Shown: positions 48,536 to 61,389 of the stretch, piece by piece
Numbering within the stretch: the first letter of the stretch is position 1
Layout: every line of letters starts with the position of its first letter
Virus record (IMG/VR): IMGVR_UViG_3300025646_005482
Coordinates: 64,001-128,000 of that record
Length of the DNA stretch: 64,000 nucleotides
Reading direction: 5' to 3' (one strand)
Source: a virus
Program-made: the position numbers and the translations under genes
Notes under the pieces: model-generated
Told to the model about the DNA's origin: nothing
Seen by the model: only the letters and a program-made list of their open reading frames with translations
Database searches by the model: none

Positions 48536-49558
48536 ATGGCCGTATCATCACAAAAATTTGACACACTCGATGGATTAGTTGTCACGGGCCCGATGGAAAT
48601 TGGCGGCAATGTGGCTGTCGACACGAACGTCCTTTTTGTAGACACTGTAAACAATCGTGTAGGTATCAATAAAACTCCAACTGTTGCGTTAGATGTTAGT
48701 GGTGCTGTAGCTATTACGAGCGGAAATATTACTGGCCTAACTAATCTTGGAGCTGGTAATCTAAGTCTAAACACTGATACTATTACTGGTACAGCAGGTA
48801 TAACACTAGACGCAGTGGGAGATATTTCTCTAGATGCTGATGGTGCCGACATTCTGTTAAAGGACGCTGGTACACAATACGGCGCTCTCACTAATTCTTC
48901 TGGCAATCTTGTAGTAAAGTCAGGTACTACTACCGCGATGACACTTACATCGGCAGGTGGAGTTGTATTTTCTGATAACTTAGGTATATCAAACGGCAAA
49001 CGTATCGATTTCGGTACGGTCATGGACATGACTGCAGACTCACAGGGTGTTTTATTAAATGCAAACACATATCATCAAGGGTCTATCGTCAGTTATTTTG
49101 GCGGAGTAAAAGATACAAATACGTATCTACAATTTAATGGTGCTGATTCTTTCCAAATAACAACTGGCGGAACAGTTAGAATGACCGTTAATAATAGCGG
49201 TGTGACTATTCCAGGGGCCTTGTTATTCGATAGTGTTGCATCAGATCAACCATATTATGAAACAATCAATGCTCCTGCTGGACTAACATTTAATTTGAAT
49301 AATGGATCAGCGTTTACTAAATCTGGTGGAGGAAGCGGAGGAACTGTAGTGTTTACCATGCCTTCAAGTCCCGGTACAAATAGTTTTGCATGGACAATTA
49401 AATTTATAAACTCTGGCGCATTGACTTGGCCAGCTAGTGTCAAGTGGTCTGAAGGAGTTCAACCGCCAGAATCTTCTGGAACTGATATATATAGTTTTGT
49501 AACGTACGACGGTGGAACCAACATCTATGGCTCACTCGCAGTTAGAAACGCGTCGTAA
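48536..49558 (+). CDS. Short tail-fibre protein with C-terminal WSEG/TDIYSF docking-type domain
   Basis: LFVDTVNNRVGIN fibre motif; ends WPASVKWSEGVQPPESSGTDIYSFVTYDGGTNIYGSLAVRNAS. Confidence 0.8.
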   Translation: MAVSSQKFDTLDGLVVTGPMEIGGNVAVDTNVLFVDTVNNRVGINKTPTVALDVSGAVAITSGNITGLTNLGAGNLSLNTDTITGTAGITLDAVGDISLDADGADILLKDAGTQYGALTNSSGNLVVKSGTTTAMTLTSAGGVVFSDNLGISNGKRIDFGTVMDMTADSQGVLLNANTYHQGSIVSYFGGVKDTNTYLQFNGADSFQITTGGTVRMTVNNSGVTIPGALLFDSVASDQPYYETINAPAGLTFNLNNGSAFTKSGGGSGGTVVFTMPSSPGTNSFAWTIKFINSGALTWPASVKWSEGVQPPESSGTDIYSFVTYDGGTNIYGSLAVRNAS

Positions 49559-49568
49559 GGGGTAAGAT

Positions 49569-51446
49569 ATGGCTGGTGCTGGTGGTAAAGGGTTTTTAGA
49601 TAGAACTTGGGCTGCAACATATGATCAGACCTCAGCGGGTACTGCTCCTGGTTCTGACCTCAATGTAACATACGGCAAACAAATAATAGAAGTATCAGCA
49701 AGAGGTGGAACGGCTAGCGCTCCTATCTTGCAACCTGCTTATTCCGTCACAACCAATTATCCTGCTCGCGATTACACACAAAGCGCTTATCAGGTCACAA
49801 CATTTTATGCAGATGAGATAACTAATTATCCTTCTCGTATCTTTACTCAGCCTGCATATTCAGTAATTACAAACTATCCGTCACGTAATGTTGCTGATCA
49901 ACCAGCGTATGCAGTAATTACTAATTATCCTAGTCGTTCTACTAATCAACCTGCATATTCAGTAATTACAAACTATCCGTCTCGTGGTAACCCTGCGCAG
50001 CCTGCGTATAGTGTGACTACAAACTATCCGAGTCGAGCCGTACCTGATCAGCCAGCATATTCAGTAACGACTAACTATCCGAGTCGAGCCGTACCTGATC
50101 AGCCAGCATATTCAGTAACGACTAACTATCCAGCTCGTGCGACACCTGATCAACCAGCGTATGGTGTCACAACTAACTATCCTGCACGGCTATATCAACA
50201 GGCTTCTTATTCAAGTATTGTATATTATCCTGCTAGAACTAATTATCAGAGTTATCCTGCACGAACGACTAACTATCCGTCGCGCAACACACCATCACAG
50301 CCCGCATATACTACAAACTATCCTGCGCGAACGACTAACTATCCAGCTCGAGCTGTACCGAATCAGCCCTCTTATACTGCAAGTTTTCCAGCGCGTTTCG
50401 TGCCTAATCAGCCTGCATACTCGCAAAATTTCCAAAACTTTAACATCTATATGGCATACTTGTGGGGGGTTATATATTATCCATCGCGTACGGTACCAAA
50501 CCAGCCTGCGTATGTTGCTAGTTATCCAGCACGTAACGTACCATCACAGCCCGGATATAGTGTAACTCAACCAGCATATAGTGTTTCTCATCCGGCCCGT
50601 GCTAATCCTGCACAGCCAGCATATAGTGTTACTCAACCCGGTTATCAGGGTTCTGCGTATCAACCAGGATATTCTAATGTTACTAATTATCCTGCTAGAA
50701 ATTATTATCAGAATGCATACTCTGTAACGACAGCTTATCCGTCACGTGCTAATCCTGCGCAACCAGCATATAGTGTTACAACTAACTATCCGGCCCGTGC
50801 TAATCCTGCGCAACCAGCATATAGTGTGACTACAAACTATCCATCACGAGCTAATCCTGCACAGCCAGCATATAGTGTAACTACAAACTATCCATCTCGT
50901 GCGACACCTGATCAACCAGCGTATAGTGTCACGACTAACTATCCCTCTCGTAATTATTCAGAGGCAGCGTATAGTGTCACGACTAACTATCCATCGCGAG
51001 CTGTACCAAACCAACCTGCGTACTCTGTAGTGACAAATTATCCGTCACGTGCTACTACACAGCCTACATATTCTGTTACTCAACCAGCATATCAGGTTGT
51101 AACATATTATCCATCGCGAGTATATCAACAAGCAGCGTACAGTGTGATCACAAACTATCCATCTCGAGTAACAGCTGGTACCAGTGGTACAGCTACTACT
51201 TTGCAAATGACTGGCAAAGATGGTACTACATATTTGTTGACAGCTCCAGGCACTGCGACGAATGTAGCTAACTACGCTGCTCCTCCCGTGGCTACTGCAG
51301 TATATGCAACTCTTTACGCGCCTGTGGTAAAAGAGCTAGCTAATGATCCTAATGAGGCAGATGTCACATTGGGTACAAGTCCTGCTGGTCAAACTAATCC
51401 GACATATCGGCCATTTGTCAATGTGAAGTATGACGGCAACCCATAA
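49569..51446 (+). CDS. Pro/Tyr/Thr-rich repeat fibre protein with mirror-complementary arms (predicted giant beta-hairpin)
   Basis: About 17-aa QPAYSVTTNYPSRxxPx repeats over residues 55-533. Confidence 0.85.
   Translation: MAGAGGKGFLDRTWAATYDQTSAGTAPGSDLNVTYGKQIIEVSARGGTASAPILQPAYSVTTNYPARDYTQSAYQVTTFYADEITNYPSRIFTQPAYSVITNYPSRNVADQPAYAVITNYPSRSTNQPAYSVITNYPSRGNPAQPAYSVTTNYPSRAVPDQPAYSVTTNYPSRAVPDQPAYSVTTNYPARATPDQPAYGVTTNYPARLYQQASYSSIVYYPARTNYQSYPARTTNYPSRNTPSQPAYTTNYPARTTNYPARAVPNQPSYTASFPARFVPNQPAYSQNFQNFNIYMAYLWGVIYYPSRTVPNQPAYVASYPARNVPSQPGYSVTQPAYSVSHPARANPAQPAYSVTQPGYQGSAYQPGYSNVTNYPARNYYQNAYSVTTAYPSRANPAQPAYSVTTNYPARANPAQPAYSVTTNYPSRANPAQPAYSVTTNYPSRATPDQPAYSVTTNYPSRNYSEAAYSVTTNYPSRAVPNQPAYSVVTNYPSRATTQPTYSVTQPAYQVVTYYPSRVYQQAAYSVITNYPSRVTAGTSGTATTLQMTGKDGTTYLLTAPGTATNVANYAAPPVATAVYATLYAPVVKELANDPNEADVTLGTSPAGQTNPTYRPFVNVKYDGNP
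49731..51167 (+). repeat. Coding tandem repeat (about 51-nt unit)
   Basis: Includes an exact 51-nt duplication at 50022-50123. Confidence 0.9.
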
Positions 51447-51451
51447 CGTCA

Positions 51452-51459
51452 TATAAATA
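51452..51459 (+). promoter_or_regulatory. Late promoter TATAAATA
   Basis: Exact consensus upstream of the oxygenase at 51490. Confidence 0.75.
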
Positions 51460-51489
51460 AAAATGTGACTATATTATTTAAGGTGATCT

Positions 51490-52116
51490 ATGTTTCAATT
51501 ACCATACTCTCTTGTTCCTCCATACGAACTTCCCCATTTTGGTGTCATGGAAAAAGTGTTCGACGAAGAAGAAGTCGAACGCATTCGTTTCTATGAAAAA
51601 ATTCTAGATTTTCAAGATGCTACGATTGTTGGGCAACAACAAGGCGATGAAGCTTCGCAAGAACAAACAGCCAGAATTGCAAAAAATGCAAGTATTCCAC
51701 ATGACGAAAATACTGTTTGGTTGTGGAATAAGATAGCGCATTTATCAGCAAAAGCAAATTATGATTTATTTTTATACGACATTTCTTTTCTCGAAGATTT
51801 AAGTTATACTGTCTACATAGGTACAGATAACGGACACTATACAAAACACATAGATACTTCTTTATTTGGTTATCGCAGATACGATAGAAAAATATCTGGT
51901 ATTTTAGTGTTGTCTGATCCAGATGAATATGAAGGAGGCACTCTGAGTATTGATGTATACGGTGGCGCGCCTGAAGACAGATGGACGAGAATAGAAAAAC
52001 CGAATAAAGGTGATTTAATTTTCTTTGATTCTAATTTCATTCACACGGTAGAACCAGTGACTAGTGGTAAACGTCAAGTGTTAGTATTTTGGGTACACGG
52101 TAAACAAAAACTATGA
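51490..52116 (+). CDS. 2OG-Fe(II) oxygenase (prolyl-4-hydroxylase/PKHD-like)
   Basis: HYTKHID, RKIS, DPDEYEGG, FDSNFIHTVEPVTSGKRQVLVFW. Confidence 0.9.
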   Translation: MFQLPYSLVPPYELPHFGVMEKVFDEEEVERIRFYEKILDFQDATIVGQQQGDEASQEQTARIAKNASIPHDENTVWLWNKIAHLSAKANYDLFLYDISFLEDLSYTVYIGTDNGHYTKHIDTSLFGYRRYDRKISGILVLSDPDEYEGGTLSIDVYGGAPEDRWTRIEKPNKGDLIFFDSNFIHTVEPVTSGKRQVLVFWVHGKQKL

Positions 52117-58174: not shown

Positions 58175-59514
58175 TGGCAAGGCGCAGACGAAGTTTCTTC
58201 TTTGATAACATCAACAAAAAATTGTTGACGGATACAACAAAGAATACAAAAGATGTCAAAGATGACGTAGATGCTGCTGTAGTCGCTAATAACCATATTA
58301 TGACTAAAGAAGAAATTCAGGATGAAATCTCTTCAACTTTGACAACTGATGGTTATGCTACACAGACTTATGTAAATTCTACAGTATCTACTTCGAATAC
58401 TGCGTTAAAATCATACGTTGATACTAACTTCTCTACTACTACGGCGATGAATACCGCCATCGCATCATCAAATACTGCGATGAAGACATACGTCGATAAT
58501 GAAGTTGCAAGTGTAGATCTATCATCATATTCTACAACTATTCAGATGAACACAGCCATCGCATCATCAAATACTGCGATGAAAACGTATGTTGATAATG
58601 AAGTCGCGGGCATTGTCGATTCTGCGCCTGGAACATTAAATACTCTTAACGAGCTCGCTGCTGCGCTGGGTGATGATGCTAACTTCTCTACTACTACAGC
58701 AACATCGTTGGGTAATAGACTAAGAATAGATACTGCTGCGCAAGGTTTGACGGGTACACAACAAACAAATGCGTTGACTAATCTTGGTATTACTGCATCT
58801 CTTACTGAGCTCAATAAGCTCGACGGTGTTACTGCATCTACTACAGAACTGAATTATTTAGATGGTGTAACAAGTAATATTCAAACACAGTTAGACGGTA
58901 AACAAGCTTCAGGTAGTTATTTAACAGGTAACCAAACAATTACATTGTCGGGAGATGTCAGTGGTTCAGGAACTACGAGCATTGTTGTTACAGTCGCAGA
59001 CGATTCTCACAATCATATTATTTCAAATGTAGATGGCTTGCAGGCAGCACTTGATGCAAGAGTTACATCTCTTGCAGATCTCAGCATAACTGCAACAGCG
59101 ACAGAACTCAATTATGTCGATGGTGTAACGTCTAATATTCAAACACAGTTAAACGCTAAGGCAAATTTAAGTGGAGCAACGTTTACAGGCGGAGTGGTTG
59201 CCTTACACTATATAGAGACTAAAGTAACCGCTGCATCAGGAACTGGTACAAAGACATTTAATTTAAATAGTGGTTCATCATTCGAATATACTGGCACAGG
59301 CGCTGGATTTACTGCAGCATTTAGTAATGTACCCGGAACAAATACAATTTCTTGGACATTAAAAACAACTAATAGCGGCACTATTACTTGGCCAGCAGGA
59401 GTGAATTGGTCAGAAGGTGTAACACCACCTCCTTCAAGTGGCACCGATATCTATAGTTTCATAAGTATAGCCGGAACAATTTATGGCTCGCTAGCCATGA
59501 GAAACGCGAGTTAA
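58174..59514 (+). CDS. Tail-fibre protein with C-terminal WSEG/TDIYSF domain
   Basis: DSAPGTLNTLNELAAALGDDANF; TELNYxDGVTSNIQTQL x2; 33-aa SNTAxKxYVD repeats. Confidence 0.85.
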   Translation: MARRRRSFFFDNINKKLLTDTTKNTKDVKDDVDAAVVANNHIMTKEEIQDEISSTLTTDGYATQTYVNSTVSTSNTALKSYVDTNFSTTTAMNTAIASSNTAMKTYVDNEVASVDLSSYSTTIQMNTAIASSNTAMKTYVDNEVAGIVDSAPGTLNTLNELAAALGDDANFSTTTATSLGNRLRIDTAAQGLTGTQQTNALTNLGITASLTELNKLDGVTASTTELNYLDGVTSNIQTQLDGKQASGSYLTGNQTITLSGDVSGSGTTSIVVTVADDSHNHIISNVDGLQAALDARVTSLADLSITATATELNYVDGVTSNIQTQLNAKANLSGATFTGGVVALHYIETKVTAASGTGTKTFNLNSGSSFEYTGTGAGFTAAFSNVPGTNTISWTLKTTNSGTITWPAGVNWSEGVTPPPSSGTDIYSFISIAGTIYGSLAMRNAS

Positions 59515-59821: not shown

Positions 59822-61389
59822 TGCCATTTCTTGGTAGGGCGCCAGTAAGAGCTATCACTGATCTTAGTATCGATGGTTCAACAATACAAAACGCAACGAT
59901 CGCAAACTCAACGATCACCGCGGGTACAATCACGTCTGCAACAATTGATACTGCGACCTTATCAAATACTGCCGTTTCATTAGAAAACGGAACGATTACT
60001 AATTGCGATATTTCAGGTGGTACCATCAATGCTACTGCTATATCGTCTGGAACAATTACTGATACAGATATTCAAGCTGGCACAGTAAATGCTACCGCTG
60101 TAACTTCTACTAGTTTCACTGATATTACTATTTCTGGTGGCACAATATCTACCGCATCAATTACATCGGGCACTATCGCTGATGCAGCTATCAGTAATAC
60201 AAGTATAGAAACTGGTACTATCAACGCTGCTAGCATTTCAGCTGGTTCGATTAGCGGAACAGATATAGAAGGTGGTACTATCAATGCCACTGCTATTTCA
60301 GCTGGTTCTATTAGCGGAGCAGATATCGAAGGTGGTACAGTAAATGCGACAGCAGTAACTTCAACTAGTTTCTCTGATATTACTATTTCAAGTAGTACTA
60401 TTAGTTCTACGGCGATCAGTACTGGTTCGATATCTGCTGCTAGTATTTCTGCCGGCACGATCGCTGATGCTAGCATAAGCAATACTACTATCACCACTGG
60501 TTCTATTACCAGTACGTCTATTACCAGTGCGGATATCGAAACTAGCACAATAAATGCATCATCGATCTCTGCTGGTACTATTGCTGGTGCTGATATTGAT
60601 AGCGGTACTATCTCGTCGACGACTATTGATACAGCTACTATATCAAATACTTCTTTGAATCTTACTGGTGGCACTCTTACTGGTGTCGATATCGAAGCTG
60701 GTACCATCAATGCAACAACAATTACAGATGCTTCAATTTCTAATACAACTATAGAGACAGGCACGATCAATGCTGCTAGTATTTCGGCTGGTTCGATATC
60801 TGGCGCCGATATTTCTGGTGGTACTATCACGTCATCTACAATTGAAAGTGGTACTGTGAACGCGGCTGCAGTGACGTCGACAACATTTACGGATATCGAT
60901 ATCACCGGTGGTACTATCAGCACAGCATCAATCAGCGCTGGAACGATTGAAGATGCTAGCATAAGCAATACTACTATCACCACTGGTTCTATTACAAGTA
61001 CATCCATCAGCTCTGGTACGATTACAAATGCTGACATTAGTGGTGGTTCTATCACTCACTCTTCGTTCATCGAAAAGAAAGTTGCGGCGACTTCAGGAAC
61101 CGGCACGAAGACATACAGTCTCAACGATGGTTCTTCGTTCGAGCACACAGGATCAGGAGCATTTACTGCAAACTTTACGAATGTGCCCGGAACACATACC
61201 ACTTCTTGGACATTGGAAGTCAACAATGGTGGAACAGCACACACGATTACATGGCAAGTTGCTGGAGCTGATGCGGTCAATTGGTCAGAAGGTATCATAC
61301 CTCCACCATCTACAGGCACAGACATCTATAGCTTTATCTCTGTAGCAGGTACAGTTTATGGATCACTCGCAATAAGGAACGGTAGCTAA
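59821..61389 (+). CDS. Ser/Thr/Ile pentapeptide-periodic beta-solenoid fibre with C-terminal WSEG/TDIYSF domain
   Basis: Ile/Val at every fifth residue for about 400 aa. Confidence 0.85.
   Translation: MPFLGRAPVRAITDLSIDGSTIQNATIANSTITAGTITSATIDTATLSNTAVSLENGTITNCDISGGTINATAISSGTITDTDIQAGTVNATAVTSTSFTDITISGGTISTASITSGTIADAAISNTSIETGTINAASISAGSISGTDIEGGTINATAISAGSISGADIEGGTVNATAVTSTSFSDITISSSTISSTAISTGSISAASISAGTIADASISNTTITTGSITSTSITSADIETSTINASSISAGTIAGADIDSGTISSTTIDTATISNTSLNLTGGTLTGVDIEAGTINATTITDASISNTTIETGTINAASISAGSISGADISGGTITSSTIESGTVNAAAVTSTTFTDIDITGGTISTASISAGTIEDASISNTTITTGSITSTSISSGTITNADISGGSITHSSFIEKKVAATSGTGTKTYSLNDGSSFEHTGSGAFTANFTNVPGTHTTSWTLEVNNGGTAHTITWQVAGADAVNWSEGIIPPPSTGTDIYSFISVAGTVYGSLAIRNGS

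Follow-up and report, generated by a model that had tools for sequence, protein, structure and literature searches.

A candidate host-contact tip at the turn of a long mirror-repeat protein encoded beside a tail-fibre gene in T4-like marine phages

In T4-like phages, the tips of the fibre proteins determine the host range, and for the abundant uncultured marine myoviruses the determinants are mostly unknown. In the published structure of the gp37 tip of phage T4, the chains reportedly reach the distal end and return, and the residues that contact the receptor lie at the chain reversal. At this tip, W936 accepts only aromatic substitutions, G938 accepts none, and Y949 is placed such that it can stack on a glucose of the lipopolysaccharide (PMC6957217). 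In T2-type phages, the adhesin gp38 is encoded by a separate gene that follows the fibre gene; it combines a conserved attachment part with hypervariable host-specificity segments on a conserved repetitive scaffold (PMC3157838). Here, we analyse a 625-residue protein encoded in the virus record IMGVR_UViG_3300025646_005482 of IMG/VR. The window that was analysed comprises 64,000 nucleotides (positions 64,001 to 128,000 of this record), and all nucleotide coordinates refer to it. The repeats of this protein are arranged in mirror symmetry around a central segment of 19 residues, which is termed the apex in the following. The symmetry argues that a long intramolecular hairpin turns at the apex, and the segment is a good candidate for a host-contact surface.

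The protein consists of an N-terminal segment of 54 residues, about 28 units of a Tyr/Pro repeat of some 17 residues (residues 55-533), and a C-terminal domain of 92 residues. A first-pass annotation of the window had noted a hydrophobic non-repeat segment at the centre of symmetry of the repeat region, which holds the only Trp and Met of this region; all parts of this description could be confirmed. Nucleotides 50421-50477 are in frame with the open reading frame (ORF) 49569..51446 on the plus strand and code for residues 285-303. The protein possesses two Trp (W14, W299) and three Met residues (M1, M295, M546), of which only W299 and M295 are located within residues 55-533. The mean Kyte-Doolittle hydropathy is +0.15 for the apex compared to −0.82 for the arms, and the share of F, W, L, I, M, V and C is 42% compared to 11%. 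The apex is the most hydrophobic stretch of the repeat region; in the whole protein it ranks 39th of 607, since the C-terminal domain exceeds it in hydrophobicity.

A profile made from nine regular 17-residue units was scanned over the protein and tiled nearly all of residues 55-533. The largest gap, and thus the longest stretch unmatched by the profile, comprises residues 286-303. It is bounded by a partial match to the first five positions of the unit (residues 281-285) and by a partial match to unit positions 10-16 (residues 304-310). The apex can therefore be described as a stretch of 18 residues that takes the place of the four central strand residues in a single unit. A foreign insert or a junction of two unrelated arrays can be ruled out, as the apex lies within a single expanded unit that begins with QPAYS and ends with YPSR. 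A frameshift artefact can also be ruled out: the other two frames over 50421-50477 are free of repeats (ORF 50137..50565), and the apex is kept in frame in the homologues L008 and L009. Second copies of this exact apex were found neither among shorter proteins nor, when its back-translated DNA pattern was searched, in contigs from metagenomes and viruses. The apex codons for Trp-Gly-Val include a run of six G (50464-50469), and runs of this kind can slip in replication.

The composition of the apex bears on one further proposal of the first-pass annotation, namely that the segment is a candidate membrane-inserting loop; in this case, it would enter the outer membrane of the host. The unique Trp and Met of the repeat region are compatible with this function, as are a hydrophobic run of 11 residues and the complete lack of charged residues. 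However, a mean hydropathy of +0.15 over 19 residues is low, the hydrophobic run comprises about 11 residues, the first eight residues are mostly polar, and the segment is too short for a membrane-spanning element. Moreover, the apices of several homologues are charged or hydrophilic; those of L010, L018 and P0004 contain three charged residues each. Insertion into a membrane is weakened by these values and is very improbable.

The two arms that flank the apex are in exact mirror register. If residues i and j of the two arms are placed opposite each other according to i+j=588, the centre of symmetry is Y294, which is the tenth of the 19 apex residues. With this constant and with zero tolerance, each of the 28 left-arm motifs faces a motif of the other type; this is true for all 13 Q-type motifs (e.g. 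QPAY) and for all 15 Y-type motifs (e.g. YPSR). The runner-up constant pairs 21 of the 28 motifs. After shuffling of the motif elements within the arms, the best fraction was 0.42 on average and 0.68 at maximum, and in none of 1000 shuffles did it reach 1.0; this null model is generous, since shuffling destroys the alternation of Q and Y motifs. The degenerate zone near the centre is in register as well: Y-only mini-units at residues 229, 236, 251 and 258 are opposite Q-only mini-units at residues 356, 349, 334 and 327. The sole unpaired Q motif of the right arm (residue 505) is opposite a degenerate Y motif at residues 80-83.

A motif-free scan for facing aromatic residues pointed to the same constant. 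At S=588, 32 of the 38 left-arm aromatics are opposite an aromatic residue, compared to 16 for the runner-up (z = 9.6 versus the other constants). Read at the level of residues, each seven-residue YSVTTNY strand of the regular units would lie antiparallel to its equivalent in the opposite arm, and the linkers rich in Pro would be juxtaposed as well. The innermost facing pair consists of residues 281-284 and 304-307, which leaves exactly the 19 apex residues in between. A mapping of left-arm windows to their best unique partners in the right arm gave weak, non-significant negative correlations; the aromatic-facing scan is far more decisive.

Homologues of the protein are rare. Word-indexed and exhaustive searches of 1.8 billion representative proteins yielded 22 matches, of which a handful are full-length, and about 30 further loci were obtained when viral and metagenome contigs were scanned with patterns. 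All relatives have the N- and C-terminal segments in common, and the arms vary in the type and number of their units, such that the total length ranges from 267 to 973 residues. A motif-free scan for the mirror centre was applied to every distinct full-length protein (approximately 27). In 14 distinct proteins, the centre has the same offset of +3.5 residues relative to the point halfway between the conserved N- and C-terminal anchors, and in at least 20 of the approximately 27 it lies within five residues, with repeat regions of 215-833 residues. The constant position of the centre implies that the arms are held equal to the residue over a nearly four-fold change in length. Compared to L008 and L009 (67-70% identity, 555 residues), the window protein has 34 extra residues per arm, which correspond to two units each; the alignment with these homologues contains one gap of 34 columns in the left arm and one of 34 columns in the right arm. 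The mirror centre is ambiguous in P0002, L015 and L016. Two distant homologues, L006:6001-7944 and P0019, have arm repeats of very different kinds, and a Cys pair in their central segment might close the tip through a disulfide bond.

Structure models were considered for the window protein and for P0001, a complete homologue of 352 residues with 66-70% identity. The AlphaFold2 (AF2) models reach a mean predicted local distance difference test (pLDDT) score of 38.6 in the case of the window protein and of 52.1 in that of P0001, with values of 50-80 at the termini. Each repeat unit is modelled with two strands. The sequence-derived constants make mirror partners of strands 38-45 and 543-549 in the window protein, and likewise of strands 37-44 and 271-276 in P0001. 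Structural alignments with PDB entries comprised about 90-100 aligned residues, which span residues 12-624 of the window model and residues 14-352 of the P0001 model. In the models, both termini appear to contribute to one eight-stranded β-sandwich at a pLDDT of 50-80. The best matches of P0001 were the CUB regions of TEP1r and C3 (Z 9.0 and 8.5) and a GOLD domain (Z 8.4); a designed double-stranded β-helix, 6e5c, was matched with a Z of 7.8 and a root mean square deviation of 2.5 Å over 74 of 78 residues, and TNF/C1q-like jelly rolls formed a further class. As these Z values are near noise level, the name of the fold is to be taken as a lead only.

Nevertheless, this lead allows for a comparison with known folds. 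A double-stranded β-helix is in itself a hairpin that is wound up, and in C3 and TEP1 a large insert divides the CUB domain. The likeness of the present protein to jelly-roll and double-stranded β-helix structures (CUB, GOLD, TNF/C1q-like, 6e5c) concerns the sandwich of the termini in low-confidence AF2 models with Z values close to noise. The arms might form an elongated double-stranded β-helix. To our knowledge, there is no natural jelly roll with a hairpin insert of 215-833 residues that is made of repeats, and a search of the literature on fibres of the double-stranded β-helix type gave no relevant report. The triple β-spiral shaft of adenovirus and reovirus fibres is a one-way trimer of repeats of about 15 residues, each of which contains two short strands and a Pro/Gly turn. 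The low-confidence AF2 models have two strands per unit. However, the mirror register and the matched indels of the arms are unexpected for a one-way shaft, and no triple β-spiral structure was among the fold matches of the two models.

Taken together, the exact mirror register, the equal arms throughout the family, the matched 34-residue indels and the mirrored base strands of the AF2 models argue that the apex is the turn of an out-and-back chain, as the first-pass annotation had suggested when it placed the segment at the apex of a hairpin. This assignment is well supported and about as firm as an analysis of sequences permits. The protein resembles the gp37 tip in that the chain would reverse its direction in the middle of the sequence, as deduced from the mirror symmetry, and in that the turn is rich in aromatic residues and contains Gly. 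It differs from gp37 in several respects: there is no homology (no match to a family or to PDB sequences), gp37 is a homotrimer with iron coordinated by His-x-His motifs whereas the present protein has one His in 625 residues, and the out-and-back part makes up about 77% of the protein and consists of tandem repeats.

The conservation of the protein decreases from the termini to the apex. Averaged over 18 close pairs, the identity is 92% for the N-terminus, 78% and 79% for the outer arms, 69% and 71% for the inner arms, 52% for the apex (±10 residues), and 87% for the C-terminus; likewise, the rate of nonsynonymous substitutions (dN) increases from the base via the arms to the apex. The alignment of homologues, which the first-pass annotation had named as a check of variability, thus identifies the apex as the zone of lowest mean identity. 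When the repeat region is scanned for its least self-similar 15-mer, this lies at a relative position of 0.48-0.53 in seven proteins. Family-wide, the central ±9 residues contain 25% of hydrophobic residues other than Tyr (compared to 13.5%) and 11% of Gly (compared to 4%), and Pro is less frequent. The length of the apex ranges from 4 to about 60 residues.

The most striking differences occur between the homologues L019, L024 and L025, which are 84-90% identical overall and 14-40% identical at the apex, where indels are present. The rate of synonymous substitutions (dS) is saturated at their apices and amounts to 0.22-0.70 in the arms. A saturated apex on arms of low dS indicates that a cassette was replaced by recombination; in these three sequences, a recombination mosaic flanked by conserved repeat units is located at about residues 250-300. 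The homologues L003 and L005 differ in one of 782 residues, and this difference, V384I, falls within the apex. A diversity-generating retroelement that targets the apex is rejected, since the 160-kb record, which is about 89% complete, contains neither another copy of the apex DNA nor a match to RVT_1. The hypervariability that the first-pass annotation had postulated is therefore borne out in part. Among close relatives the apex is the most variable zone, and it is swapped as a cassette in L019, L024 and L025; in contrast, the lineage of the window is variable but not scrambled, as its apex shares about 50% identity with those of L008 and L009 and keeps their aromatic skeleton.

Because the termini are conserved, because the variability rises steadily towards the centre, and because the tip can be missing altogether or be swapped as a cassette in proteins that are otherwise nearly identical, the most likely role of the apex is that of an exposed contact surface. 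The best explanation for the data, which we favour with some reservation, is a single-chain out-and-back protein with an exposed, fast-evolving tip on an adhesin associated with the tail fibre. The main competing explanation is that the apex is a mere structural cap, which seals the Tyr-rich core at the open end of a β-rod and varies because it is weakly constrained. A tight capping hairpin would be expected to be rich in hydrophobic residues and Gly and poor in Pro, which is what the apices are, and the aromatic skeleton shared at about 50% identity by the window protein, L008 and L009 is in agreement with a cap. On the other hand, an apex that is swapped with indels and saturated dS between otherwise highly identical proteins resembles the exchange of a functional module and not drift. 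Moreover, the sole difference between the two 782-residue proteins is in the apex, and apices of up to about 60 residues are longer than a cap needs to be. A cap is thus conceivable but, in our opinion, the less probable role.

A number of observations weigh against the exposed tip, and the first two of them also speak for a cap. Firstly, P0001 has no apex insert; its mirror centre lies in a bare linker of four residues, which suffices as a turn. As P0001 is complete, a long tip is not required for the protein to exist. Secondly, the ratio dN/dS of the apex is 0.11-0.64 where computable and never exceeds 1, so that relaxed constraint explains the variability equally well. Thirdly, the close pairs L008-L009, P0006-L004 and P0004-P0005 have their most variable zone outside the apex. 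Fourthly, proteins of the L003 type (782 residues) possess about 20 left-arm units of 15 residues and about 21 right-arm units of 14 residues; the unit counts match but the residue counts differ, and strict residue-for-residue pairing cannot hold there. In addition, the arms and the apex are of low confidence in both AF2 models, and the structure matches (Z 6.2 and 7.8-9.0 for the models of the window protein and of P0001, respectively) are near the noise level stated for the tool. Finally, neither the whole protein nor its N- or C-terminus alone had a tblastn match in cultured phages, although the low-complexity filter may mask matches of the repeats.

Two peculiarities of the family may be added. 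The architecture of unequal units in L003:6001-8349 is also found in L002, L005 and L014. P0006 and L004:6001-7686 (561 residues) carry a second insert within the C-terminal domain, which resembles their own apex motif, i.e. a hydrophobic strand followed by Y-G-x-K-x-G-Y; in a comparison of the two, variability peaks in this insert and not in the apex.

The gene is part of a T4-like module of baseplate and fibre genes. The window is part of a 160-kb record and contains matches to T4-type baseplate proteins at about 20-45 kb, namely the tube cap, the hub/lysozyme, and the wedge subunits gp6, gp7 and gp8. According to gp6, the closest cultured relatives are Caulobacter phage Cr30, Sinorhizobium phage phiM12 and cyanophage Syn1 (35-37% identity); a megablast search of cultured phages with the 10-kb neighbourhood gave no match. 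The mirror-repeat gene is preceded by genes for a fibre-like structural protein of 1120 residues, a phrog_644 protein of 138 residues, and a tail-fibre-like protein of 340 residues. In all 25 loci, a fibre gene with a common C-terminal domain of about 100 residues ends 13-34 nucleotides upstream of the mirror-repeat gene, and in all 23 loci with sufficient downstream sequence, a 2-oxoglutarate (2OG)-Fe(II) oxygenase starts 18-62 nucleotides after its stop codon. The adjacency of the oxygenase suggests that this enzyme may modify the Pro/Tyr repeats. The coordinates of the features are compiled in Table 1.

Table 1. Positions of the mirror-repeat gene, its parts, and the adjacent genes in the window.
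Feature	Position	Strand	Remarks
Upstream tail-fibre-like gene, 340 residues	48536..49558	+	phrog_7760 and phrog_9017; C-terminal domain of about 100 residues
Mirror-repeat protein gene, 625 residues	49569..51446	+	ORF call; rare unannotated family, tail-fibre module of T4-like marine myoviruses
N-terminal conserved segment, residues 1-54	49569..49730	+	92% mean identity between close pairs; base jointly with the C-terminal domain
Left (outgoing) arm, residues 55-284	49731..50420	+	230 residues, Tyr/Pro units of about 17 residues; regular at residues 91-207, degenerate towards the centre
Innermost left rung, QPAY motif, residues 281-284	50409..50420	+	opposite YPSR at residues 304-307 (pair Q281/Y304); partial unit match 281-285
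Apex, 19 residues, residues 285-303, centre Y294	50421..50477	+	aromatic/hydrophobic; W299, M295, G300; no Pro, no charged residues
Innermost right rung, YPSR motif, residues 304-307	50478..50489	+	mirror pairing; partial unit match 304-310
Right (returning) arm, residues 304-533	50478..51167	+	230 residues; degenerate near the centre, regular at residues 378-494
C-terminal conserved domain, residues 534-625, and stop codon	51168..51446	+	87% mean identity between close pairs; AF2 pLDDT 53-75
Downstream 2OG-Fe(II) oxygenase, prolyl-4-hydroxylase-like	51490..52116	+	PF13640

The trio of fibre gene, mirror-repeat gene and prolyl-hydroxylase-like oxygenase is fixed, with gaps of 13-62 nucleotides, both at 48536-52116 and in the loci L002-L030. 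The end domain of about 100 residues occurs on three fibre-like genes of the window that have unrelated shafts (49253-49558, 59209-59514 and 61111-61389; 57% and 43% identity, E 1e-31 and 1e-19), and a mirror-repeat gene follows the first copy only.

The invariant position is a feature that the protein shares with gp38 of T2, T6 and S16. Like gp38, it is encoded at a fixed place after the fibre gene, and it combines a conserved base with a repetitive scaffold that carries a variable tip. However, there are clear differences. The 625-residue protein matches no family of Pfam (E ≤ 0.1) or PHROGs (E ≤ 0.01) and no PDB sequence, gp38 included; the ESM Atlas gave no usable result. The motifs of gp38 are rich in Gly, whereas the units found here comprise 14-17 residues and are of the Tyr/Pro type; Gly accounts for 1% of the arms in the window protein and for 1-6% in all but two proteins of the family. 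Furthermore, gp38 possesses four variable sites compared to one central site here, and the conserved attachment part of the present protein is split between the N- and the C-terminus.

The same gene order could also be explained by an assembly factor. In T4 itself, gp38 is a fibre-assembly factor or chaperone, and its gene follows that of the client fibre. By analogy, the mirror-repeat protein might be such a factor, in which case no function at the host surface would be left for the apex. The invariant position directly downstream of a fibre gene is what one would expect of such a factor, and the presence of the protein in the virion is itself putative. In contrast, a length of 267-973 residues, lineage-specific arm repeats and a fast-evolving centre are unusual for a chaperone, and there is no match to an annotated chaperone family in Pfam or PHROGs. 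An assembly factor is thus quite unlikely; it is less plausible than a cap, and more plausible than membrane insertion.

For the favoured adhesin with an exposed tip, the following arrangement can be envisaged. The chain would leave a conserved base, which is made of the N- and C-terminal segments, run outward along one Tyr/Pro-repeat arm, and come back along another arm that matches the first exactly in length. These arms would pair residue for residue, with residues 285-303 as the turn at the far end. In the central unit, the exchange of four strand residues for 18 aromatic, hydrophobic and Gly-containing residues would cap the rod or form its tip. With its base, the protein would be docked on the fibre whose gene lies directly upstream, and the aromatic side chains of the apex might stack on sugars or protein loops of the host surface. 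That the turn is the distal, host-facing end is suggested by the conservation gradient and by the analogy with fibre adhesins; which end is distal, the presence in the virion, the oligomeric state and the binding of a receptor are all points that we infer.

A more specific version of this model is attractive but tentative, and we regard it as rather doubtful in its entirety. The protein might represent an undescribed type of phage adhesin, namely a single-chain rod formed by a very long β-hairpin, possibly an elongated double-stranded β-helix that emanates from a jelly-roll base. Paired indels of one unit per arm would adjust the length of the rod, an exchangeable, aromatic and Gly-containing tip would set the host range, and the adjacent oxygenase would modify the Pro/Tyr repeats.

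Arms that are kept equal to the residue by means of matched indels are an unusually clear signature of a long intramolecular hairpin at the level of sequence. The mirror centre is a short segment that can be located from the sequence alone, that varies fastest between strains, and that is exchanged as a cassette. Such a segment would therefore serve as a practical metagenome marker of host-range diversification, and would provide a defined target for binding experiments.

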